From: Escherichia phage BRET
DNA length: 59,550 bases
Strand: one strand, 5' to 3'
Sequence record: MK165087.1
Shown here: positions 9,249 to 47,980 of the stretch, one piece after another
Layout: every line of letters begins with the position of its first letter
How positions within the stretch are numbered: position 1 is the stretch's first letter
Notes under the pieces: generated by a model
Databases searched by the model: none
Told to the model about the DNA's origin: nothing
The model's input: the letters and a program-made list of their open reading frames with translations, nothing else
Program-made: the position numbers and the translations under genes

Positions 9249-10427
9249 ATGGCTGAAGGTTCACGTTATAGTAGCTATTATATCAAAGAACAGACCTCCG
9301 GTGTCACTCCGTCTAGCGGAACTCTGAAGGTCTTTCGTGCTACTAAATCGGGTCTTGATATTAAAGTCGCTACTCTGCAATCTGAAGAAATTCGAGATGA
9401 TGCGGAAGTGGCGGATTTCCGTCTTGGTGCTCGGCACGTAGAAGGTACAGCAACGGGTGAACTGTCTTATGAGACATTTGATGACCTGTTGGGTGGTGCG
9501 TTACGTGGTACGTTTGCGGGCGAAGTGCTTACCGCAGGCATCGAGCGCCAATCCTTTACTTTTATCGACTATAACGCAGATATTACGGACTTCCCGTATA
9601 CCATCTATCGTGGTTGTGAAGTTAACAGTCTTGCAATTACTGTAAGTGCTGAAGCTATCACCGGCGTGGAATTCGGTATCGTTGGCCGTACAATGGAACA
9701 AGCTGCTACCCTGCCGTCTGGTCTAAGTAAAGGTACTCGCACGACTACTCCACCTATGGACGGCTTCTCTGGTAAGCTGGCTATGGGTGATGTATCCGTT
9801 GATGTTATTACTGAGATGGCTATTAACCTTGAGAACGGCATCGAGCCTCGCTTCGTTGTTGGTTCCAAGTTCTCTATTAAGCCAAGCTCTAAACGTCGTC
9901 AGATTAGTGGTACACTGACCGCCTACTACGAAGATAACAAACTGCGTAGTAAGTTCCTGAACGAACAGGAAAGTAACCTGACTATCGACATCCTGGACGG
10001 GACTACTGGTGCTGGTTATCGGTTCAGTATGCCTCGTATCAAGATTACGGAAGCTCCGCGTCCGATCGATGGTGAAGGCGATATCATGCTGAACATGAGC
10101 TATACTGGCCTGTTGGATCAGGACGAAGGTTACAGCATTCGCATTACTAAACTTCCGCCGATGTCTTTCACGACCGATCTTACCGCAAACAAGACTATCA
10201 CTAAAGGACAAACATTAACCCTTTCAGTTGTGGTCAAAGGTGGTGAAGAACCTTATACCTACGTGTGGAAGAAAGGTGGTGTCGTTATTGGAAGTGCTAA
10301 TCAAGCCACCTTCACTAAAGCTAACGCGCAACCGGCAGATGCAGGTCAGTATGTATGTGAAGTAACAGATTCACATGGCCGTACTATACCGAGCACACCT
10401 TGCCTTGTTGCTGTTAATGGTGAGTAA
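9249..10427 (+). CDS. major tail protein with C-terminal Ig-like domain
   Basis: 392 aa; C-terminal about 90 aa (YTYVWKKGG...GQYVCEVTD) looks like an Ig-like fold; upstream of chaperones and tape measure. Confidence 0.65.
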   Translation: MAEGSRYSSYYIKEQTSGVTPSSGTLKVFRATKSGLDIKVATLQSEEIRDDAEVADFRLGARHVEGTATGELSYETFDDLLGGALRGTFAGEVLTAGIERQSFTFIDYNADITDFPYTIYRGCEVNSLAITVSAEAITGVEFGIVGRTMEQAATLPSGLSKGTRTTTPPMDGFSGKLAMGDVSVDVITEMAINLENGIEPRFVVGSKFSIKPSSKRRQISGTLTAYYEDNKLRSKFLNEQESNLTIDILDGTTGAGYRFSMPRIKITEAPRPIDGEGDIMLNMSYTGLLDQDEGYSIRITKLPPMSFTTDLTANKTITKGQTLTLSVVVKGGEEPYTYVWKKGGVVIGSANQATFTKANAQPADAGQYVCEVTDSHGRTIPSTPCLVAVNGE

Positions 10428-10467
10428 TTGGAACGGGGTGCAAACCCCGTTTTATTAAGGAACGATT

Positions 10468-10896
10468 ATGTCTTCAGAAAATAAACAAGTATCTACTGAA
10501 GTTGCAAAGAAAGCTGTTAGTGCATCTTTCCGTGACTTTAACTTGAAAAAGAAATTAGAGAACGCTCCGCTGCTGCATTACCCGCTTGTTTTTCCAGGAC
10601 AGGGCGATACAGGCCACTGGTTGAAAATTCGCAACCGCCACAGCGAAGAATTTCGTCAAGCAGATTTAAAAGCACAACGTCAGATTAGTGCGCTTGTCGT
10701 TGCCAACGGATCTTTTGAAAAGATTGATAAGGACATGCTCGACGATATCAATATGCGAGCGTTCTGTAAGTTGGTTGCTTCGTGGAGCTTCGAAGAAGAA
10801 TGTAGCGAAGACAACCTTATTGAATTCTTTAATAATAACCCGTTTGCATATGACGATATTAATCGTCTGGCAGCTCAGGATTCCCTTTTTTTCTAA
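10468..10896 (+). CDS. tail assembly chaperone (G-like)
   Basis: 142-aa ORF immediately before tape measure, ending in a T7 run. Confidence 0.6.
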   Translation: MSSENKQVSTEVAKKAVSASFRDFNLKKKLENAPLLHYPLVFPGQGDTGHWLKIRNRHSEEFRQADLKAQRQISALVVANGSFEKIDKDMLDDINMRAFCKLVASWSFEEECSEDNLIEFFNNNPFAYDDINRLAAQDSLFF

Positions 10897-11279
10897 GATC
10901 CCGCGAAAAGCTAATTGATCACTTACTGCTCGAATGGCAATTGCACAGTTGCCCGCCGGGCAGTAAGACTCCCACAATTAAACATCTCCAACACGTTAAA
11001 AAAGTCACTGGTAAGACTCCCTCCTTACTAGCAAAGTACGAATCTAGCTCCGTACCGCACGAACTCAGATACATTTACAAGTTATTCCTTGACTTTTATA
11101 ATGGTGATAAATTCAGTTACAGCGAATTCAATGCCTGGCAAGATTATATAGGTGTAGAACTTGATTTTAGAGAGCGTGAACTAATTCGGCAGATTTGTCT
11201 TGAACGGCAAGCATTTGATATTAGGCGTCAACAAGAACTTATGCAACACGCTCAGACTAATAATAAAGGAGGTAAATAA
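10468..11279 (+). CDS. tail assembly chaperone -1 frameshift product (GT-like)
   Basis: Slippery T_TTT_TTC at about 10887-10893 just before the stop; the -1 frame is open through 11279 and abuts the tape measure start. Confidence 0.5.
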
Positions 11280-24304: not shown

Positions 24305-26278
24305 TTAAGCGGCGTATGCGAGTTTTTCCAGCAATTTTTCCGCTTTAGCTATGTACACTTCGTGGTTGAGATCCGGCGGCAATTGATCGGTGAGTTCCAT
24401 CATGGGTTTACCCCCTGCTGTCTTACCGACACGACCACCACTCTTGACTATCAGTATTTCAGGTACTTCCTCTTTTGTATAATACCAACGAACAACTTTA
24501 CCTAGTGGCTCGCTATTCCATGCAGCGCCACCGTTAGCTGTCTTAATACAAACAAACTTACGAATGTCCTGACACTCTGTGATAGTTTTAGCAATTGGTG
24601 TGCCGTCACGGAGGAGATTAACCACAGCATCCATAATGATCTCACCTTCCGCGTTCTTAGCAAGGCCAGTCTCTGCGAACCAACCTTTACGCTTGGCTTT
24701 ACCATCCGCCTTAATTGCGACGTAGTTGTTAACGTTTGCAGAGTTAAGACGCAGGTACTGGTTCAGTTCCATTTCAAAGCCAGTTGTCTCTTCCCACCAC
24801 TTGATGATATCAGTCATTAATTGCTTCTTAGCTTTGCAAGGTTTAATAACGATACCATCTGTGTTAGCACTAACGACCTGGATACCATTAAGCTCCAGTG
24901 TTTCAATGAGCATAAGTAGAGCTAACTGACCTGTGAGCGTAGTCTGGATAATAAGGTGTGGTGCATACAGGATAGAGAACGGTGAACCGAACTTACCATA
25001 GGAACCGTTGATAACGATCTTAAGAGTTTGTGCGGTCTTATCGTCATGAGCCATCTTAGCTGCAATACGTCGTTCTACGATCTTAACGAAGATATCTATA
25101 AAGCGTGGGCCCAGGTGTTCAGGATACAGTTGCTGGTTAATGATACAGATTGGGTAGTACGATGTTACGTCAGCATCCCACATCTCTTCATCTTCAGACG
25201 GTACAATCTCCATTAACTCTTCGCACGAGTGCAGACCACCGATGCCCATGTTGTAAGTTGTCTGGTTGATTGTAAACTTCAAAGAGTTCATTGTAGATGG
25301 TTGCTTAATTTTACCATCTTCTGCAACTCGGAAGTAACTGTCAAGCACCACCTGAAATACCGACTTCATTAGTGGCGTTTGGAAACCTAACCACACTGGA
25401 GGATTGTATCTAAAGGTTCTACCGACTTCCACCATACCCTTCTGTGGCACGAAGCCCAGCATTTCCTTCATCTCATGACGAATTACAGCTTCTGCAATCT
25501 GTGCGTCAGATTTAGAGCGAAGGTCTACTTTATACTCTTCACTCATAATCTCACGTAGATGGATCTGCTCTTCCAGCGAGTTAAACAGAGCCATTGTTGT
25601 ATCAAGGTCGTTAATACAGTAGAAGCGCACAATAGCAATCTGTTCTATGGACAGCGCCCAATGCGGTGGGAACGGTAAGTCCTGGAGCTTCTGCATGTGC
25701 ATACGGCCACCGTACAGCTTCAGTGAACCGAAGCCAGGAGCTACTTCTTGAACGTCAATGTGGTCAATCCAAAACTGTTTCACACCAAAACTGTTAAGAA
25801 CGTCCCACGGAGCCCACTCTTCCTGGATCATCCTGTCACTTGCTTCTTTCAACTTGTCGACAGTCAGTCCAGCAATGGCAAGGAATGACATCGTGTTATC
25901 GTAGTTTCTTGAGTTGAAACCAACGGTACGAAAGTTCTTCATTATCCATTCGTACTTTTCCGTGTCAAGTGTCTGACCAGCAGTCATTTCTAGATAATAA
26001 ACCTTACCGAACTTAACCCCTTTGAACGCCACAAGAAAATAGTTCTTATAGCATTCAATATCGTATACGAACGTTTCTTGTGCAAAATACATCTCCACTA
26101 ACTCACCGTCTGTCATACGCGGATCGTTAGCTGCAAAACGCATTGCTGCATCAAGACCTGGAAGGTAGTCCGGACGCTCCCATACCATTTCAACTGGTTG
26201 ACGTTTTACTTTCTGTTTCTTCTCTTTCTTAGCGGGAGGTAAATCCTCCCAAAAGAAACCAATAGCATCTTTTCTCAT
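24305..26278 (-). CDS. DNA polymerase (family A-like, with 3'-5' exonuclease motif)
   Basis: YDIECY (exo I-like), RRIAAK...NGSYGKFG (motif B-like), NTDG. Confidence 0.7.
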   Translation of the reverse strand: MRKDAIGFFWEDLPPAKKEKKQKVKRQPVEMVWERPDYLPGLDAAMRFAANDPRMTDGELVEMYFAQETFVYDIECYKNYFLVAFKGVKFGKVYYLEMTAGQTLDTEKYEWIMKNFRTVGFNSRNYDNTMSFLAIAGLTVDKLKEASDRMIQEEWAPWDVLNSFGVKQFWIDHIDVQEVAPGFGSLKLYGGRMHMQKLQDLPFPPHWALSIEQIAIVRFYCINDLDTTMALFNSLEEQIHLREIMSEEYKVDLRSKSDAQIAEAVIRHEMKEMLGFVPQKGMVEVGRTFRYNPPVWLGFQTPLMKSVFQVVLDSYFRVAEDGKIKQPSTMNSLKFTINQTTYNMGIGGLHSCEELMEIVPSEDEEMWDADVTSYYPICIINQQLYPEHLGPRFIDIFVKIVERRIAAKMAHDDKTAQTLKIVINGSYGKFGSPFSILYAPHLIIQTTLTGQLALLMLIETLELNGIQVVSANTDGIVIKPCKAKKQLMTDIIKWWEETTGFEMELNQYLRLNSANVNNYVAIKADGKAKRKGWFAETGLAKNAEGEIIMDAVVNLLRDGTPIAKTITECQDIRKFVCIKTANGGAAWNSEPLGKVVRWYYTKEEVPEILIVKSGGRVGKTAGGKPMMELTDQLPPDLNHEVYIAKAEKLLEKLAYAA

Positions 26279-27267
26279 AGACGAAATCCTACAATTACCC
26301 CACGTAGATTTTCACCATAAAAAATAATAGGAGTTGAAAGACCCCTTTCGTCCTTTTCATTGAAACGAGAGGCATCCCAGTCCGTTGCAAGTCCTTTCAA
26401 CTGCATAATAAGATCTATATTATACACGCCAATTGACTTGGATTCACGGAACATTGCACTAGCACCATCCAACTCGTTGTAATGTGTGCGTACAACACCA
26501 TTCTCCATGTAAATACGCCCATCCCGCTCACAGAACGGTTTTATCTTTTCTAAGCAATTAAAAAGCTCAGTATCAAGCGTATAAACGTCGGACCCCTTTT
26601 CTGTACGCTCAATTATCTTATCAATATTAGGCCACTTTAATTCCAGTAATTGTGTACGCAACCAGCAACCGTCTTCGTAATGGAATGTCATACTGGTATC
26701 TGTACATTGAATTCTTACTGGTGGCTTTTTAATGCGCAATAATTCTTTGATGGCCATACGTGGTACAACACAATCGACAGGGAATACAGCACCGAACCAA
26801 TATTGTATAATGCTGGCGTTGTTAGTCGCGTACATGCTGCCCTGTTTTACCAGCACGCCGCAAGACCACGGGCGGGAAGCATCGTCGCTTATAAACGGCG
26901 TCACGCGGCTTAAACCGTTAAGAAAAAGCTGACCGTCTATTTCGTGAATCGTTCCTTCTGGCTCTACGTGTGCAGTTGGTTTCTGAAGAGTATCTACACT
27001 AACCTTAAAGCCACCAGACTTAATGCTCAACTTACCGTTCGCTAACATTGTCATCTGTACAGCTTCGTCACATGCTGCAATAGCCTTGAGCATCGGTTCA
27101 GCTTTCGGTGTACAGTCAATGTTCAGTGGTACTGGGCTACACAATGAAATAGTTCCGTTGAACCCGCGAACAGTACCATCAACAATACGGAAGTGAGTTA
27201 AACCTTCCTGGAGTTCTTTCTTAGCTACAGAACCCTGAACAAACTTTAAAGCATCAAGTAAATCCAT
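26275..27267 (-). CDS. putative sliding clamp-like protein
   Basis: 330 aa, translationally coupled to the polymerase; N-terminus loosely resembles beta-clamp. Confidence 0.35.
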   Translation of the reverse strand: MDLLDALKFVQGSVAKKELQEGLTHFRIVDGTVRGFNGTISLCSPVPLNIDCTPKAEPMLKAIAACDEAVQMTMLANGKLSIKSGGFKVSVDTLQKPTAHVEPEGTIHEIDGQLFLNGLSRVTPFISDDASRPWSCGVLVKQGSMYATNNASIIQYWFGAVFPVDCVVPRMAIKELLRIKKPPVRIQCTDTSMTFHYEDGCWLRTQLLELKWPNIDKIIERTEKGSDVYTLDTELFNCLEKIKPFCERDGRIYMENGVVRTHYNELDGASAMFRESKSIGVYNIDLIMQLKGLATDWDASRFNEKDERGLSTPIIFYGENLRGVIVGFRL

Positions 27268-34442: not shown

Positions 34443-34682
34443 TTAATCCTTCCACCATTCAGGCCCACAATACATTCCACGTAGTTCTTCACGCATGTAA
34501 TTTTCAAACTCATCTTCAATATTGATTACTTGACTTTCGTGAAAAACTGCAATACCGTGAATAAACCGTTTGGCTCTTTCACCTTTAATTACACCATAAC
34601 CCAACTCTTCCCACTCTTTAAAAGTCTTCCATTCACCATCTTCCGGTGAATAGTCGTCACTTCTAAACGTCATCTTTGCCAT
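34443..34682 (-). CDS. small hypothetical protein
   Basis: 79 aa from an internal ATG of track ORF 34443..34850; overlaps the helicase 3' end. Confidence 0.35.
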   Translation of the reverse strand: MAKMTFRSDDYSPEDGEWKTFKEWEELGYGVIKGERAKRFIHGIAVFHESQVINIEDEFENYMREELRGMYCGPEWWKD

Positions 34683-34689
34683 ATAAGCC

Positions 34690-36693
34690 TCAAAACGGAA
34701 TGTCGTCATCAAAGTCTGGTGGTAGTTCTTTACCGTTACCAGTAAGAATAGGTTGATTAGACGTAGAATGCAACACTGTCGTACGGGAATCAGTCTGCTC
34801 ATCTTCATCAAACTTATTCGTATAACTTCCACCAAACTGGGACAGACCATTCATTGCTGCAATTTGTACAACCGGACGTTCGTTTGTTGCTTCTTTCTTA
34901 CCGAACTCACTACCGTCGTAACAACTGTTCAACACTTCGGGGAACTTACCCTTCAAGTTGACATAAATGTGCGTCGGTACACGAAGCTGGCTGACCACAT
35001 TGAGAGCTTCGTCAATGTTAGCTGGGATTGCCAAGCTGCAATGTTCACGCCACCAGTTACGCGCTTTCTTACCTGCAAAGCCAGTATGGAATAGGCAAAT
35101 ATATTGTTGAATAGTTTGTGAGCCACAAAGATAATCAACACGAAGTGTTGGTGGCTTAGAACGGTCGCCCCTGTTCTCGTGGCGGTAGTAACTTACCATA
35201 TCAACTTTCAGTACCTCAGTGACCGGTAAATCATTCTTGATAATAGCTTTCGTACTAGCACTCGCCATTAGTTTCTTCTCAAAAGTAAACTCATGACCGC
35301 AATAACCAGCACGACACGCTTTATTATTTGTAATGGTATATCCTAATCCTTGTAGATAGAGTATTTCCTCATGAGACATACTACTTGTATCGAATGGTTT
35401 TAACCCACCGCAATAGCGAACCGACGCATGGTTCCAGGTCTTACATACTGGGCATTCTTTAACAGGTGCAGCGGACTTTCCTTTCTGCCCTGGACGCTTA
35501 GGAATTACAGGGTCGTTAATAGGTCCAAGGCGTCTTGTGTTACCTGCATAGTCCAATACAAGACAGTTCTGTTTATGCGAAGCGGAGATAGCTTGCAAAC
35601 GACCCTCTGTTGTGGTCAAATCAAAACCATCTGCATAATCAGGTCGTGTACCACGTCCAAGCATCTGAACCCATAGGCGGGAAGATTGGGACGGGCGCAT
35701 ACCAATTATCAAGTCAAGACCCGGATGGTCAAAGCCTGTTGTCAATACGTTGTTGTTCGCTATTGCCTGCAAACGACCAGCTTTAAAATCAATAAGATAC
35801 TGGTCACGCAAGGCTTTCGGTGTATCACCAGTTACAACTTCACAACTAATACCGCGCTCGTTGAGGTAGTCTTTGACATCTTTTGCATGGTCTACACCAG
35901 CACAAAAGACAAGCCAACTCATTCTATTCTCTTCTTCCGCAATACTAATCGCATCATCTAATAAATGGCGAGTTACATCAGGATCGTTTACAACCTTTTG
36001 AAGCTCACTTTCAATGAACTCACCACCTCGAGTATGAACACCACTTACATCATACTCTTTCTTTGTTTTACGTGGTACTAACGGAACAAGATAACCTTCA
36101 TCGATGAACCAGTTGAAGCACTCTACGGTACATGCGTTAAATACGATTTCATCAAATAAAGCATTAGGCGCATAATCATCTTTGATAATAGAACCAAAAC
36201 CAAGACGCCAACTCGTAGCAGTAAGACCGATAATCTTTAGATATGGGTTCTTTTCACGAATGTGCGCAAAGAACTTCTGATAACTTGTTTGCTGATTTGG
36301 ACTAATAAGGTCACATTCGTCAACTATAATAATATCAACGTCCTCGAAGTATTTAGCTTGTTTTGCAACAGACTGAATACCTGCGAACGTTATCATTGCG
36401 TTCTTATCTTTGCGACCCATACCAGCACTATAAATACCAGTCGGTGCTTCAGGCCACAACTTCTTAAATTTATCGTGGTTCTGGTCTATCAATTCTTTTA
36501 CGTGAGTAATTACCATCATGCGGGTACTACCCCAATTATCGTGAATTGTCTTTAATAGACCAGCAATTACAAGGGACTTACCAGTCCCTGTAGGCAACAA
36601 GATAACAGGATTTCCTGACTTTTCACCATGCTTGATGAAATAGCGCAATGTACTGTTTACAGCTTCTTGCTGATAATCACGTAGTTTGAACAT
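34690..36693 (-). CDS. SF2 DEAD-like helicase with Zn-finger region and C-terminal DFDDDIPF tail
   Basis: Walker A LLPTGTGKS, DEAD-like IVDECD, CPVC..C..C cluster; last residues are DFDDDIPF. Confidence 0.7.
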   Translation of the reverse strand: MFKLRDYQQEAVNSTLRYFIKHGEKSGNPVILLPTGTGKSLVIAGLLKTIHDNWGSTRMMVITHVKELIDQNHDKFKKLWPEAPTGIYSAGMGRKDKNAMITFAGIQSVAKQAKYFEDVDIIIVDECDLISPNQQTSYQKFFAHIREKNPYLKIIGLTATSWRLGFGSIIKDDYAPNALFDEIVFNACTVECFNWFIDEGYLVPLVPRKTKKEYDVSGVHTRGGEFIESELQKVVNDPDVTRHLLDDAISIAEEENRMSWLVFCAGVDHAKDVKDYLNERGISCEVVTGDTPKALRDQYLIDFKAGRLQAIANNNVLTTGFDHPGLDLIIGMRPSQSSRLWVQMLGRGTRPDYADGFDLTTTEGRLQAISASHKQNCLVLDYAGNTRRLGPINDPVIPKRPGQKGKSAAPVKECPVCKTWNHASVRYCGGLKPFDTSSMSHEEILYLQGLGYTITNNKACRAGYCGHEFTFEKKLMASASTKAIIKNDLPVTEVLKVDMVSYYRHENRGDRSKPPTLRVDYLCGSQTIQQYICLFHTGFAGKKARNWWREHCSLAIPANIDEALNVVSQLRVPTHIYVNLKGKFPEVLNSCYDGSEFGKKEATNERPVVQIAAMNGLSQFGGSYTNKFDEDEQTDSRTTVLHSTSNQPILTGNGKELPPDFDDDIPF

Positions 36694-37644
36694 TTACTCA
36701 CCGTAATAATCTGCTGCTTCGTATTGACCACATGCTGCCATCTGGTCTTCCTTCGTTAATACACCTTCGGTTCCATCTGTGATGTATGCAGTAGCAGAAG
36801 CTACTTTGATTGCACATCTCCAGGTTCCATCTTCGAGCGGATAAGAGTGCTTACAGGTGCGGCAGTTAACTTCAGGCATCTTGTTGTTGTGACATACCGC
36901 TTTGTGGTCACACCATTTGCATTTATAGTAAGATTTACTTTCATTGATCTTAGGTGGTGGGCATTCCGCCAGTGCAATTACAAATCCACGGTCTTTGTAG
37001 CGTTCTGCTGTTTCTTTATCAAACGGTACAAGCTCTGCCCAAATCTCGTCCGTGTTCTTATTAACTGCAATATAAAGAGCGGCTGGGAGCCCATAATACA
37101 ACATGTATTCCTGCATCTGAACATAGTGCTCCCATTTGGATTCCATCACACCATTAACGACAAGTTTCTTGAACGAATCGTTATTGTGCGTTTTCATCTC
37201 CGTCAAGATTGGTGTAGAAGGTTGTGGCATGTCGGGGCAACCAATGACAATACCATCTATCGCAGAGCCAAAGTGTCCGTTGAGATAGCTAACTCTATAC
37301 TGGCTGCCATTTTCGTCTTGTTGGATGACTTGCATACCGGCGGTAAGTAATAAGGCCACGAAGCGACCTTCTTCAAGATGCCCGCGATTGAATAGACGTA
37401 AGGTTTTACCGTTAAAGTGCGGTTTTGTTGCCCATCGCCATCCGTAGAAGATTGCTCTGCTACACTCTTGCCCGATAAGACTAATCCCAAGATGCGAACG
37501 GAATCCGCCATCCCCCTCTCGATATGCGTCTTCAATATGCGGTAATACTTTTCCGAGCCATACTCTGTAAGCGGATCCTTGATCTCGTTCAATACAGTCA
37601 TTGAATAACTCCATTGTCTTAGTAGCAGGATAAAAATGTGGCAT
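36694..37644 (-). CDS. PD-(D/E)XK exonuclease with C-terminal Cys cluster (Cas4/RecB-like)
   Basis: AIDGIVIG...LTEMKTH motif and a C-terminal 4-Cys cluster. Confidence 0.6.
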   Translation of the reverse strand: MPHFYPATKTMELFNDCIERDQGSAYRVWLGKVLPHIEDAYREGDGGFRSHLGISLIGQECSRAIFYGWRWATKPHFNGKTLRLFNRGHLEEGRFVALLLTAGMQVIQQDENGSQYRVSYLNGHFGSAIDGIVIGCPDMPQPSTPILTEMKTHNNDSFKKLVVNGVMESKWEHYVQMQEYMLYYGLPAALYIAVNKNTDEIWAELVPFDKETAERYKDRGFVIALAECPPPKINESKSYYKCKWCDHKAVCHNNKMPEVNCRTCKHSYPLEDGTWRCAIKVASATAYITDGTEGVLTKEDQMAACGQYEAADYYGE

Positions 37645-37706: not shown

Positions 37707-38633
37707 TTACTGTGCAGCGTCATCGCCTTCAGTGGAACGTTTCCACGGTGGAGTCTTGGTCTGAGCTGCTTTAGCGATATCGTCCTGGACTTCAGGTTCT
37801 GCATGGTTAGCAGTACCAGTGTTCTGAGCTTGAGTTTGCGGTTGCTCTGCTCCTGGTTGAACCTGCTGAGTTGCCCAGTTAGGCTGCTGAGTCTGTTGCT
37901 GCGCACCAGTAGCCCACGGTTGGGATTGTGCCGCACTGTTAAAGTCAACTGTTCCAGACTGCTGCGTCTGCTGTACAGGTTGTTGCTGCTGTACCGGCTG
38001 CTGCGGCTGTTGTTGCTGCTGCGTTTGCTGGAACCCCTGAGCCTGAGTTTGCTGCTGCTGTTGCTGCGGCTGCTGCCCAAATGCGCCCGGGAAACCCTGC
38101 TGCGGTTGCTGCTGTTGCTGCTGAGCACCACCAAACGCACCGCCACCGAATGCCGGAGACTGTGCTGCCGCTGCTGGAGTTGACTTAGGCAGGTTAGCCA
38201 TGTCCGCCTTAGTTGCGTATACAACACCTTCCATGTTATCAATTGCTTGATAAATTTGAGGTTCGTTGTTTGGCTCATAGCCAGGTTGTTGACGAACTTT
38301 CACTTTCAGGTTAAACGGAATACCGTGCAGTTGTTCAGTATCGTTCCAAACTGGAACTTTAACAGCACGGGACAGCTCTGCCAGTTCTTCCATTGCAATC
38401 TGTACAGCGACAGGGTTCGCGTTCTTGACGTTGTAACCGCCAAACATTACACGACCAGCAAAATCACCCTGCATAATCTTAAACTGAAGATTCAGACGCG
38501 CACCGCCTGGAGTTTTAGTCGGTTTGATTTCAGAGTTTACAATCTGAACAACATACCAACCAGCGGGCATCAAGCTGTTGTGTTGACGCTCTGCGTGCTG
38601 TCCAGCGTTAAATTGCATTCCTAAACCGGCCAT
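37707..38633 (-). CDS. putative ssDNA-binding / annealing protein with Gln/Gly/Pro-rich linker
   Basis: Structured N-terminal 150 aa then a long Q/G/P-rich low-complexity region like SSB linkers; coupled to the Sak4-like ATPase. Confidence 0.4.
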   Translation of the reverse strand: MAGLGMQFNAGQHAERQHNSLMPAGWYVVQIVNSEIKPTKTPGGARLNLQFKIMQGDFAGRVMFGGYNVKNANPVAVQIAMEELAELSRAVKVPVWNDTEQLHGIPFNLKVKVRQQPGYEPNNEPQIYQAIDNMEGVVYATKADMANLPKSTPAAAAQSPAFGGGAFGGAQQQQQQPQQGFPGAFGQQPQQQQQQTQAQGFQQTQQQQQPQQPVQQQQPVQQTQQSGTVDFNSAAQSQPWATGAQQQTQQPNWATQQVQPGAEQPQTQAQNTGTANHAEPEVQDDIAKAAQTKTPPWKRSTEGDDAAQ

Positions 38634-39379
38634 TATTGTACCCCTTTGATTTTGTTAATGATTGCACCGAGATGTGGATATTCCATCTGTTCTAACGAAC
38701 CAGAACGATCTTTACATACATTTGACAGATCTGGTCTTGTCAGCAGATAACGAAAATCTGCTTGAGTATTTTGGTCTTTACCAACACTAATTTTGAAAAC
38801 TTCATCAAAAAAGTATGGTAATTCTGGACCTAATTTTGCACCAGGCATAGAAGGACCATAAGACGTAATACCTGTTAACTCGTCCTTATTACGGGACATT
38901 TTAGCTGCCATGTATACGTTAAGTCCAGGGATATCCCGAAAAGCACGAACCAACGTTTGCATCTTCTCAATGAGATCCCCATAAGCCTGACGCGGATCCT
39001 TCACAGTACGCTTCGCATTGTTAAGGCACTTTTCAGCAATCTCAGTAAGTGAATCCAGCGCAAGAGACTGAAAGCGCGGTAAACCATCTTCACCTACAGG
39101 GTTGTTTGCAGGGTTAGTCGCCCAAACATAAGCCTGCTCCACATCCTGGATATTTTCAACCGTGATGGTTGGAATATCGTAACAGATATCTGGTCTGTTT
39201 TCACCAAACACACGAGCAATGTTATTCGGTGTTAAAGACAGAAGCCCAGACTCTGCAGAAATCAGCAACGGTCTTGGAAGGGTTGCTGTAAGCATGGTCT
39301 TACCCATACCGGATTCACCATACACAAGCATCTTGACACCAGTGTCCAAAACTGCCTGCGCGGTAGTTGTAAATTGCAT
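38633..39379 (-). CDS. RecA-like ATPase (Sak4-like recombination protein)
   Basis: Walker A GESGMGKT at N-terminus, about 248 aa, within recombination module. Confidence 0.6.
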   Translation of the reverse strand: MQFTTTAQAVLDTGVKMLVYGESGMGKTMLTATLPRPLLISAESGLLSLTPNNIARVFGENRPDICYDIPTITVENIQDVEQAYVWATNPANNPVGEDGLPRFQSLALDSLTEIAEKCLNNAKRTVKDPRQAYGDLIEKMQTLVRAFRDIPGLNVYMAAKMSRNKDELTGITSYGPSMPGAKLGPELPYFFDEVFKISVGKDQNTQADFRYLLTRPDLSNVCKDRSGSLEQMEYPHLGAIINKIKGVQ

Positions 39380-45406: not shown

Positions 45407-45432
45407 ATGGGCGCATATAGCGCCCATTTTTT
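45407..45432. terminator. bidirectional rho-independent terminator
   Basis: ATGGGCGC-atata-GCGCCCAT followed by TTTTTT; lies between convergent genes. Confidence 0.6.
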
Positions 45433-47980
45433 ATAACTTAATGACTTCGTTCATTCTCTCAATGTCTACCAAATAACACTTCATTCTCGGTGGTGTAAAC
45501 TCTGCACCGAAGAAACTTGTAAAGTCCATTGGCCTCATCTCGGTAAGAACTTCCATAGACATCAGACCATAGATTGTATTGTCTATGACTTGCAAGATGT
45601 TGTCATTTCTTGTCTGTTTAAAAGCCTTAAACTGGCGGCATACTGTGCATAAATCACTCCTTGTGACAATAAATGCGTCCTTAAACATGGGAAACCGTTT
45701 ATACACGCCAGCTTTAACTTCCCCATCCAAGAACTTCTTAATGGAATTCAGCATTATCTTCTCACGGCTTGTACTGTCGGTAGAACCGATCTGCCCACTG
45801 TTACGCTTCTCTAAGAAACGCTCGTTACCCTGATCAATAAATGACTCAGCCCAACGATAATGTTCCATAGTAACAACAGGTCGTTCACTGTTATCAGCCA
45901 CAGCAAGAAGAGAAGCGATACGCAATACCTTCAACGCCTTCCTTGTGTACATCTGACGAATTACTTCGTCTTGTACCTGCTCACCATCATTGCCGCTGTT
46001 CAGGAACTTCGCAACAACATTATCAAGATTATCAAATGCTTCGTGTACCTCTGCTTCCATTTCAACATAGCATGGGGCAGTCCCTGACATAATGCGCACA
46101 GCTTGTTTATAGATAGCTCCAATAGTGCGCAGAATTGCTTCTGGATATTCCAGGAGCATACTCTTATTCATCAACGGTCGGTTAGCAGTACATTCCCATG
46201 CAATAATACGTGACATGAAACCACTAGACATCATGCGGTCATCCACGTTCCCGTAAAATTCATCTGGTGTTGTTTCACCTGCAAAGCTATACGCCTTAAC
46301 TTTACCGCCAGCAGTTGTATTGTCTTTGCTAGAGTGTTTTGAACCACCTGAGAAAGCGTAGAAATGCCCCTTATCATAAAGGGAAAGCATTTCATCCATA
46401 ATGTCTTTAGCTTTACCAACTTCCATCTTACCATTACGGAAAAACGCACCGACTTCAGTCTTATAGTTAATGGATGAGCCACAGGACATAACTGACGTAT
46501 CCATTATGACGTCCTTGCGCAATGCAGCATCAGACGCATATGTACTTGTATCCAGGACACGTTCAATACCAAATATCTGCTGCCCGTCCTGGCCGCCATA
46601 ATTGGATACTTGAGAAAGAATAGTTTCAATGTTAGAGCGAAACGCTTCTTTACCAATACCAGAACGTGCAATCAGTACAAAGTAGTTATTCAAACCACTT
46701 CGTGTGACTGTGTTCCACGCCTTACCGCACATACCACTAAATAAAGCAAGAGCAGACAGAATACTAATGTCTTTAATAGGCAACAAGCTCGCTTTATACA
46801 TATTACGAGCAACCTCACCCATAAATCCTGGAGGCCAAGCTAAACCGTCTGCCTGTTCTTCAGTGTAATTACCATCTGTGGTCAACACCTCTTCAGGTGG
46901 GCGTTCTGGTGTAGTTGCCTGACGCAGTTTCTCCGTGCGCTCTATAGCTGCATTAACGTTATTCTGAACTATCTGCATAAGTCCCATAGATTTAACATGG
47001 GCATCGTAGCGATAGTTGCGAATCATTCTATCCAGGTGGTACGGACGCTTAATTTTTTCACCAGGCATACGACGTGAATCATCGTAACGACTACTCATTG
47101 GTGAATACATGAATAGGCGTCTTACCTGGAAATTGTACTTGCTCTTAAAGCAAAGAAAGTCAATTAATGCAAATTCTGCTTCAGACTGAGAAGGGAAACA
47201 GCGTTCACCGATAGAAGTATCAACTTCTTCAGCTCTCCAACGACCTTCCCATAGCTGTTTAAACAACGTTCCGTTTTCTTGTTCGCACAACTGGATATAA
47301 ACATCCTGATCTTCCATTGCATATGGATCATTACTGAAATCTTCTTCAGTAAGTTCCAACATTTGGAAGCCATCGGATTCATTAATTTCACTCATCTCTG
47401 ACATAAGCTGATGAATGAGATTAGCAATATATCCTTCGCTTTCACTACCTGGAGCACCAGACACAGTGCGTGGAGTAACATCCCAGTGATCACCTGTACA
47501 GATAATGAAGCGATACTGTGAATATACTTCTACACCATCACGGCGCTTACCAGCTTGAGGGATGGAATAAATCCATGTATGCAACCCATCACCGCTTCTG
47601 GAAATTTCCGTATAACTGTGGAACGATTCAACAATCTTCTTATATCGCTCGCCAGCAACTTTCTTTTCCATTTCAGACATGGTGTCTTTAATATCCATGT
47701 CTATACAACAGAACGGATCACTTGGAAGTAGATAGAAACCTAGACGCAGATTATGACCGATTTCGTTATAGTAACGAATACAACGTTCCGCATCTTCAAA
47801 GGACATTAGTAAATGCAAGTTAGACGGTTTTTTATCGTTGCCGTCTTTACGAAGTGGGACCATATCCCCTAAATCATCGTCCCATACATAAGGTTGTTTT
47901 TCTGATGATGTACCTGGATGAAAACCGCAGACAGCCCACTGTTCGTATTGTTTAATTTCTTGAGGAAAAAGTTCCAGCAT
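45431..47980 (-). CDS. primase-helicase (primase-polymerase-like N-terminus plus P-loop helicase C-terminus)
   Basis: 849 aa; N-terminal acidic motifs (CIDMDIK, SGDGLH) and C-terminal P-loop (ARSGIGKE). Confidence 0.65.
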   Translation of the reverse strand: MLELFPQEIKQYEQWAVCGFHPGTSSEKQPYVWDDDLGDMVPLRKDGNDKKPSNLHLLMSFEDAERCIRYYNEIGHNLRLGFYLLPSDPFCCIDMDIKDTMSEMEKKVAGERYKKIVESFHSYTEISRSGDGLHTWIYSIPQAGKRRDGVEVYSQYRFIICTGDHWDVTPRTVSGAPGSESEGYIANLIHQLMSEMSEINESDGFQMLELTEEDFSNDPYAMEDQDVYIQLCEQENGTLFKQLWEGRWRAEEVDTSIGERCFPSQSEAEFALIDFLCFKSKYNFQVRRLFMYSPMSSRYDDSRRMPGEKIKRPYHLDRMIRNYRYDAHVKSMGLMQIVQNNVNAAIERTEKLRQATTPERPPEEVLTTDGNYTEEQADGLAWPPGFMGEVARNMYKASLLPIKDISILSALALFSGMCGKAWNTVTRSGLNNYFVLIARSGIGKEAFRSNIETILSQVSNYGGQDGQQIFGIERVLDTSTYASDAALRKDVIMDTSVMSCGSSINYKTEVGAFFRNGKMEVGKAKDIMDEMLSLYDKGHFYAFSGGSKHSSKDNTTAGGKVKAYSFAGETTPDEFYGNVDDRMMSSGFMSRIIAWECTANRPLMNKSMLLEYPEAILRTIGAIYKQAVRIMSGTAPCYVEMEAEVHEAFDNLDNVVAKFLNSGNDGEQVQDEVIRQMYTRKALKVLRIASLLAVADNSERPVVTMEHYRWAESFIDQGNERFLEKRNSGQIGSTDSTSREKIMLNSIKKFLDGEVKAGVYKRFPMFKDAFIVTRSDLCTVCRQFKAFKQTRNDNILQVIDNTIYGLMSMEVLTEMRPMDFTSFFGAEFTPPRMKCYLVDIERMNEVIKL

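Follow-up and report, generated by a model that had tools for sequence, protein, structure and literature searches.

Why would a phage helicase end in the same eight residues as its host's SSB (single-stranded DNA-binding protein)? This question is raised by Escherichia phage BRET (sequence record MK165087.1), of which a stretch of 59,550 nucleotides was analysed as a whole (hereafter the window) and which encodes a 667-residue superfamily 2 (SF2) helicase terminating in DFDDDIPF. The C-terminal tip of SSB (SSB-Ct) is a central recruitment signal of bacterial genome maintenance that has at least 17 partner proteins and is used as a drug target. What is new at this locus is that a RadD-like helicase bears the host SSB-Ct sequence letter for letter and that, in related loci, such a tip is placed in a mutually exclusive way on the helicase, a small adaptor or a sliding clamp; C-terminal acidic docking tails of replication proteins are, as such, of a known kind.

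The helicase of phage BRET ends in the C-terminal tip of E. coli SSB

The helicase gene is a single unbroken open reading frame (ORF; 34690..36693, minus strand) of 667 amino acids (aa), which starts with an ATG immediately after the TAA of the upstream Cas4-like gene and ends in ...GNGKELPPDFDDDIPF before its stop; its last eight codons (gac ttt gat gac gac att ccg ttt) are followed by tga. When this end was compared with the C-terminus of the E. coli K-12 MG1655 SSB (PSNEPPMDFDDDIPF; ssb read from NC_000913.3), 8/8 final residues were identical, and close relatives of the helicase end in PMDFDDDIPF, which is 10/10 with E. coli SSB and includes the Phe at position -7 and the Met at position -9. 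A first-pass annotation, made from the DNA letters, had claimed that the 667-aa helicase ends in DFDDDIPF and that these residues match the SSB tip, and the ORF, its codons and the K-12 ssb gene all agree with that claim. We refer to the C-terminal residues ELPPDFDDDIPF as the candidate tip peptide of the helicase.

Could this match be accidental? Assuming typical residue frequencies, the estimated chance of a random 8-mer match is about 1e-10 per protein. In the window, the helicase ORF is the only one with a tip-type end and the motif occurs once in six frames, and tip-like ends among the ~14,500 stop-to-stop ORFs of 91 loci are nearly confined to the helicase, a small downstream protein, the clamp and SSB. 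Moreover, when homologues were surveyed for the same tip, as the first-pass annotation had proposed, about 116 of the 120 best ones (44-100% identity) were found to end in acidic-[I/V]-P-F. A chance match is thus ruled out by the sole occurrence in the window, by the control ORFs and by the family-wide conservation of the tip.

The tail might also have belonged to a separate ORF or arisen from a frameshift, two possibilities that had been named together with the original claim. Re-checking the sequence revealed neither, since one continuous ORF is present in the window, in six Nonagvirus genomes and in other loci with a tip in cis, and the same in-frame tail was read in the fetched Nonagvirus genomes (L001, L012-L016). 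Full-length copies of the helicase gene, 95-97% identical in nucleotides, are present in 17 records of Nonagvirus, 9g, JenK1, JenP1/2 and SE1 among them, and we assign the window to Nonagvirus, as a 9g/JenK1-type siphophage of E. coli and Salmonella. A recent capture of DNA from the host ssb gene found no support either: relatives differ synonymously and the similarity ends just upstream of the tip, and the 22/24 tip nucleotides that match host ssb are as expected from the shared amino acids. Across about 40 loci ending in DDDIPF, synonymous codons vary (GAT/GAC, ATT/ATC/ATA, CCN, TTT/TTC) while the peptide stays the same, which argues that the tip is under purifying selection at the peptide level.

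How is the tip presented? The AlphaFold2 (AF2) model of the helicase, which was built on 114 homologues and has a mean predicted local distance difference test (pLDDT) score of 88, is confident to about residue 620, and pLDDT drops below 50 at residues 620-648 and 656-667. The folded core is accordingly modelled as ending near residue 620, with a disordered linker of about 45 residues that would present the tip. Among 111 tip-bearing homologues, the tail past the last conserved core motif measures 15-112 aa (median 47) and its composition is of the disorder type, being rich in A, P, D, T, V, E and S with almost no Cys or Trp. This variable linker length points to a flexible tether rather than to a fixed intramolecular contact; intramolecular docking of the tip was not seen in the AF2 model, judged by its per-residue pLDDT, which is below 50 in the tail.

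The tip itself is far more constrained than the linker in these 111 tails, with Pro at -2 in 111/111, Phe at -1 in 110/111 and Ile or Val at -3 in 109/111. Further upstream, Asp or Glu stands at -6 and mainly Asp at -5 and -4, often preceded by Phe, Met or Leu at -7 and by Asp or Glu at -8, a profile that recapitulates the D-F-D-D-D-I-P-F of SSB, and six tails contain a second, internal copy of the motif 25-30 residues upstream. With an extreme C-terminal D-D-D-[I/L]-P-F, a free terminal Phe and a disordered linker, the motif falls by its sequence features into the SSB-Ct class.

Helicase, small Cys-rich protein and sliding clamp are alternative carriers of the tip

Not all members of the helicase family carry the tip: at 50% clustering it was present in 29/150 representatives, the rest stopping after the C-terminal domain (..KYPEIxxYEF). 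To see where the tip goes in such cases, related loci were scanned ORF by ORF (80 viral contigs and 10 annotated phages). This comparison revealed a clear-cut distribution over 83 related loci. None of the 55 tip-bearing helicases (0/55) is followed by a phrog_23504 protein, whereas 21/28 tipless helicases have one directly downstream, always ending in [I/V/L]PF. These proteins belong to a family of no known function; they are Cys-rich and 66-96 aa long, their ORF overlaps the tipless helicase's stop codon, and they follow the pattern CxxC...C...RPP..V..GCPEW..[D/E][I/V/L]PF-COOH (for example L006 8634-8867, L007 8631-8873, L003 8733-8957 and L082 3498-3701, plus 17 other loci).

A third carrier is the sliding clamp. 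In Rhodobacter phage RcSpartan the tip is located on this protein (..YFDPDDEIPF; L004 8665-9894), and 85/120 homologues of the RcSpartan clamp (P0297-P0416) have a C-terminal extension of about 40 aa that ends in ..DDIPF, ..DDEIPF or ..DNFPPF, tipless clamp homologues being shorter by about 40 residues. Tips of the ..EDDIPF and ..DDNFPPF forms both occur within one clamp clade.

Where a locus of the viral-contig set contains both helicase and clamp, exactly one tip was found among helicase, small protein and clamp in 36/36 cases (25, 10 and 1, respectively). A strict rule of one tip per module had to be rejected, since it is broken by one locus (L095) in which the small protein and the clamp each bear a tip. 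On a rough neighbour-joining tree of 327 helicases, which has no support values and gives orders of magnitude only, we counted about 20 changes of tip state, compared with about 101 when the states were shuffled, and the root was inferred to be tipless. Judging from this distribution, the tip is portable within the module and sits on the helicase, the small Cys-rich protein or the clamp, usually on one only.

The window has its own small ORF of 79 aa directly after the helicase, which ends in ..YCGPEWWKD. A kinship with the GCPEW..IPF small proteins, as a member that has no tip, was considered and rejected, since this ORF belongs to phrog_24889 and not to phrog_23504. It weakly matches the N-terminal single-stranded DNA (ssDNA)-binding domain of ArdC, and the gene annotated here in the JenK1 record has a different placement.

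The neighbouring SSB-like protein has a C-terminal motif of its own

The first-pass annotation had also described the adjacent SSB-like protein as rich in Gln, Gly and Pro but lacking the tip, and this description holds: the DUF669 protein of the window has such a composition and its C-terminus reads ...TKTPPWKRSTEGDDAAQ. It had further been proposed that the SSB tail function had moved from this protein onto the helicase, and here the census of related loci speaks against the idea. The acidic IPF tip was found in 0/65 DUF669 proteins, regardless of which protein carries the tip in their loci, while 63/65 have a PPW motif of their own near the C-terminus, in the form [A/T/V]-P-P-W followed by 2-16 residues. 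Instead of a single transfer, the tip alternates among helicase, small Cys-rich protein and clamp, and an origin of the tip from the DUF669 SSB was therefore rejected. The module has two separate C-terminal motifs, the tip and PPW, and the latter may correspond to the YPPF tail that the Sak4 protein of phage HK620 needs.

The Gln-rich linker of DUF669 proteins varies in length (the whole proteins measure 261-308 aa; P0121-P0129) among phages in which their N-terminal domain is 98-100% identical, which suggests that the linker repeat expands and contracts rapidly.

A handle on host SSB partners is the favoured role of the tip

Which protein, then, receives the tip? Our tentative preference, at somewhat less than even confidence, is for host SSB-interacting proteins, which we consider the most likely receptors and onto which, in the first-pass annotation too, the tip was proposed to dock. 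The tip would be a payload that docks in trans into an SSB-Ct-type pocket, with a basic rim and a hydrophobic hole for the terminal Phe, of a third protein, with helicase, small protein and clamp as interchangeable anchors that would keep it at the fork or D-loop of the phage. The fused helicases suggest such a division into payload and anchor, since they keep the linker and the tip only and the Cys-rich domain is gone; in the small protein, this domain would merely anchor the tip to the helicase. Phage ssDNA would be coated by the DUF669 SSB, and because this protein has no SSB-Ct, host SSB-interacting proteins could not be recruited via the phage's own SSB. The identity of 8-10 residues between the tip and the host SSB favours this reading.

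As a specific candidate, chi of the host clamp loader, a subunit that binds SSB-Ct, would be the most attractive: the phage encodes a DnaN-type clamp without a recognised loader, and in other phages it is the clamp that carries the tip. The clamp of the window, which ends in ..GENLRGVIVGFRL and has no Pfam match, was identified from its structure: its AF2 model has a pLDDT of 91, and Foldseek placed bacterial beta clamps on top (template modelling (TM) score 0.77, E ~1e-20; E. coli and P. aeruginosa). No clamp-loader-like P-loop ORF was recognised in the window and none is annotated in JenK1. As a wider proposal, which we regard as rather doubtful, a large group of siphophages with a DUF669 SSB and a clamp but no loader might use one movable host-type SSB tip, borne by the helicase, by phrog_23504 as a small Zn-ribbon-like adaptor or by the clamp, as a handle on the host SSB interactome, capturing the clamp loader via chi and thereby loading the phage clamp at forks or D-loops.

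Several observations weigh against docking on host partners. The tips of enterobacterial phages vary (DDDIPF, DLDVPF, PDYVPF) and those of small proteins can be weakly acidic (for example PEWLGEIPF), so strict mimicry of the host tip is not required. One metagenomic phage, the L095 exception mentioned above, has two tips, on its small protein (9725-9991, ..HAFDIPF) and on its clamp (10001-11200, ..NMDDDIPF). The receptor could also lie inside the module, given that the helicase is a homologue of RadD, which binds SSB-Ct, and HK620 Sak4 depends on a ..DYPPF-COOH tail (PMC5928155) while some clamp tips read ..DNFPPF. Finally, the chi proposal leans on negative evidence, namely that no loader was recognised, and the loci compared are mostly metagenomic. 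Docking of the tip on host partners would thus be one proposal among several.

A related proposal, made in the first-pass annotation as competition with host SSB, takes the host SSB partners as victims rather than as helpers: as a decoy, the tip would titrate SSB-interacting proteins off the host SSB, thereby shutting down host replication or repair or blunting ExoI and RecJ. The identity of the tip with the host SSB-Ct would fit, but a monomeric and probably low-abundance helicase should compete poorly with the tips of tetrameric SSB, which number in the thousands, and the placement on clamp or helicase suggests local recruitment over bulk titration, which makes a decoy very improbable.

The helicase resembles RadD, itself a receptor of SSB-Ct

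The family of the helicase, which the first-pass annotation had left at SF2, bears directly on the search for a receptor. Pfam matches to ResIII (1.7e-21), DEAD (2.3e-13) and Helicase_C (1.5e-12) cover residues 1-350, and the PTGTGKS and DEC motifs are invariant among homologues, as expected of an SF2 enzyme. E. coli RadD was matched both by phmmer (PDB 6jde; E=7.5e-65, residues 2-417) and by BLASTP (37% identity over 431 aa, E=3e-74), and the CPVC of the Cys cluster aligns with the CPAC of RadD. At the level of structure, RadD accounts for each of the eight best Foldseek matches in the PDB (E 1e-33 to 1e-35, ~640 aligned columns, whole chain), with TM scores of 0.46-0.56 and a different orientation of the domains. 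The NCBIfam RadD equivalog model NF053632 gave 293.7 bits against a cut-off of 720 and was matched over profile positions 1-389 of 573, and we class the helicase as RadD-like, not as a RadD equivalog. It is a phage RadD-like SF2 DNA translocase that most likely acts in branch migration or recombination.

Insertions of some 345 aa and upwards often split helicase homologues just behind the P-loop (P0031; 800-1583 aa representatives such as P0150, P0153 and P0164), and the insertion of P0031 has intein and homing-endonuclease Pfam domains.

Considering that E. coli RadD has an SSB-Ct pocket made of R21, R49, R145 and a hydrophobic hole, and that its ATPase is stimulated by SSB-Ct (PMC10238739), the receptor of the tip might be the helicase itself, through its own RadD-type pocket on motor domain 1. 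The phage would then supply an activating peptide in cis (as the tail), in trans (as the small subunit) or on a clamp that both recruits and activates the helicase, and it would have reason to do so because its SSB lacks the SSB-Ct that stimulates the ATPase of E. coli RadD. The motor domains include the stretch that corresponds to the pocket (F19, L46, R58, I121, K153, I155): its hydrophobic positions are conserved in phage homologues, the equivalent of R145 is Lys or Arg in 84-96% of them, and R58 is basic in 92-97%, yet this residue aligns with RadD R51, while R49 falls into an insertion or gap and the R21 equivalent is variable. The tip-carrier genes also lie directly downstream of the helicase, the small ORF overlapping its stop codon. 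Against such a self-contact stand the undocked tail of the AF2 model (pLDDT below 50, which is weak evidence), linker lengths of 15-112 aa that do not suggest a fixed contact in cis, and the need for three separate logics to explain three carriers, of which the fused form would recruit nothing. We regard this alternative as rather unlikely.

The tip belongs to a conserved gene module

The order of ATPase, DUF669 protein, Cas4-like protein and helicase is retained in Queuovirinae, Titanvirus, Beaumontvirinae and many metagenomic phages, and a P-loop ATPase was found upstream of DUF669 in 45/45 loci with enough upstream sequence. On the other side of the helicase, past deazaguanine genes, come the clamp and then the polymerase, and a ligase and an RNase H are encoded further upstream along with the AEP (archaeo-eukaryotic primase)-DUF3987 protein, which is likely the replicative primase-helicase. 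The features of the window are collected in Table 1.

Table 1. Features of the window discussed in the text, with the basis of each assignment
Feature	Coordinates	Strand	Basis or remark
RadD-like SF2 helicase gene	34690..36693	-	Pfam and RadD sequence/structure matches; span includes stop codon
Two RecA-like motor domains, residues 1-390	35524..36693	-	RadD alignment, column conservation, AF2 pLDDT >90
Zn-ribbon-like Cys cluster, residues ~411-470	35284..35463	-	C414, C417, C428 and C465 invariant
C-terminal folded domain, residues ~490-620	34834..35226	-	AF2 pLDDT ~90-96 to ~610; whole-chain Foldseek RadD alignment
Disordered linker, residues 621-659	34717..34833	-	AF2 pLDDT; tail composition in homologues
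C-terminal tip DFDDDIPF	34693..34716	-	Residues 660-667; same as last 8 residues of E. coli SSB
Helicase stop codon	34690-34692	-	Codon reading
79-aa ORF directly after helicase	34443..34682	-	phrog_24889; weak ArdcN match
Cas4-domain (PD-(D/E)XK) exonuclease-like gene	36694..37644	-	phrog_1990 E=8e-115; adjoins helicase in related loci
DUF669 SSB-like protein, Q-rich, no acidic tip	37707..38633	-	Pfam DUF669; phrog_6015 "single strand DNA binding protein"
PPW motif near DUF669 C-terminus	37743..37751	-	[A/P]PW in last 25 residues of 63/65 homologues
Sak4-like AAA_24 ATPase (RecA-core annealase family)	38633..39379	-	Pfam AAA_24; phrog_124 "Sak4-like"
AEP primase fused to DUF3987 helicase	45431..47980	-	Pfam DUF3987 and AEP; primase or primase/helicase in relatives
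Phage DnaN-type sliding clamp, 330 aa, tipless	26275..27267	-	AF2 and Foldseek
Putative DNA polymerase	24305..26278	-	Synteny with JenK1 gp29 "DNA polymerase"; name from relatives' annotation only

The constant presence of the ATPase gene brings in another candidate. In phage HK620, the last six residues of the cognate SSB (NDYPPF-COOH) are needed for Sak4 to bind SSB-coated ssDNA and to be stimulated (PMC5928155), and the Sak4-like AAA_24 ATPase of the module might similarly receive the tip, through which the helicase, the clamp or the small protein would be tethered to the recombinase of the phage. Both the HK620 Sak4 and the ATPase of the window are AAA_24 proteins, the co-occurrence of ..EDDIPF and ..DDNFPPF tips in one clamp clade links the IPF and PPF flavours, and the proposal gains from the 45/45 linkage of the P-loop ATPase to DUF669. 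However, the two Sak4 proteins are almost without pairwise similarity, the PPW motif of DUF669 is a more natural counterpart of the YPPF of the HK620 SSB, and a contact internal to the phage needs no identity with the host tip over 8-10 residues. On balance, the ATPase is an unlikely receptor. Such tethering would also parallel the cooperation of RadD with RecA, RadD being a RecA-dependent accessory factor.

The window polymerase has no Pfam match and ends in ..KLAYAA, and polymerases beside the clamp in relatives end in ..SASLF (L004 9904-11940), ..GELAFF (L093 4639-6711) or ..GSLFF (L094 11147-13174), ends that resemble beta-clamp-binding motifs.

As acidic Phe-terminated tails recur in phage replication (that of T4 uvsW, as annotated, ends in ..DSDDEVEESF) and as a polymerase gene lies within the conserved module, the tail might instead bind basic patches on the phage polymerase or primase-helicase, in the manner of phage T7, and so keep the accessory helicase in the replisome. 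This would leave the exact identity with the host SSB-Ct unexplained; moreover, there is no sign of a suitable pocket on the polymerase, which has no Pfam match, and the polymerases of relatives already end in clamp-binding-like ..LF or ..FF. We hold it to be quite improbable.

Significance and comparison with known systems

In the full-text literature that we searched, whose coverage is incomplete, neither a phage SF2 helicase nor a phage clamp nor phrog_23504 is described as bearing an SSB-Ct tip. What we describe is a conserved and selected copy of the exact SSB-Ct signal on phage proteins that are not SSBs. Its hopping among helicase, small adaptor and clamp provides a testable model for how phages with a non-canonical SSB may plug into host or phage SSB-Ct-binding machinery. 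The analysis also assigns a likely role to phrog_23504 and flags PPW as a second conserved motif, on DUF669 SSBs, and phage RadD-like helicases could become a tool for studying how SSB-Ct regulates RadD.

Among known systems, T7 gp4 and gp2.5 have acidic, Phe-terminated C-terminal tails that bind gp5/thioredoxin, and the likeness to these tails drawn by the first-pass annotation is apt, since the helicase tail is acidic and aromatic-ended and would likewise be a flexible docking tail on a phage replication protein. T7 gp4, however, belongs to the hexameric replicative helicases of SF4, and its tail binds the polymerase of the phage, whereas the protein described here is an SF2 RadD-like accessory helicase; and, unlike the T7 tails, its tip equals the host SSB-Ct consensus and can be borne by a clamp or a small protein instead.

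T4 UvsW/UvsW.1 and T5 D10 are, like the helicase of the window, SF2 recombination helicases of lytic phages, and UvsW (2oca) is a distant Foldseek match of the helicase model. The C-terminal part of T4 uvsW as annotated is really a small protein in its own right, UvsW.1, and this may parallel the arrangement of helicase plus small protein. As annotated, T4 uvsW (NC_000866.4; L097 1678-3441) ends in ..LEDSDDEVEESF, which is acidic with a terminal Phe; it differs in belonging to another subfamily and in having a tail without I-P-F, which is not the SSB-Ct consensus. Both UvsW and D10 trigger Retron-Eco11, which also restricts Nonagvirus, in a 2025 study that does not mention the tail (PMC12746101).

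HK620 resembles the window in having an AAA_24 Sak4-like ATPase beside a non-canonical SSB, and a ..PF-COOH tail is functionally required there (PMC5928155). In HK620 this tail is on the SSB, for which no DUF669 match was found, whereas in the window PPW lies within the SSB-like protein and it is the helicase that ends in PF-COOH.

With the bacterial SSB-Ct (MDFDDDIPF in E. coli), the helicase tail shares the final 8 residues, the free Phe carboxylate, the upstream Asp residues and the disordered linker. The SSB tips of bacteria end in IPF in Proteobacteria, in LPF in Bacillota and in PPF in Actinomycetota. Bacterial SSB is however an OB-fold (oligonucleotide/oligosaccharide-binding) tetramer with a linker rich in Gly, Gln and Pro, while the tip described here is on a monomer-type SF2 helicase whose linker is not of this composition. 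E. coli RadD (YejH; PDB 6JDE / 7R7J / 8H5Y), finally, is alike in both motor domains and in the start of the Zn ribbon, and differs in that it ends in ..RLAHELRG, with no tip, and in that the phage helicase's C-terminal domain has diverged. The relationship to the tip is thus reversed between the two proteins: RadD binds SSB-Ct, and the phage helicase carries a tip of the SSB-Ct type.

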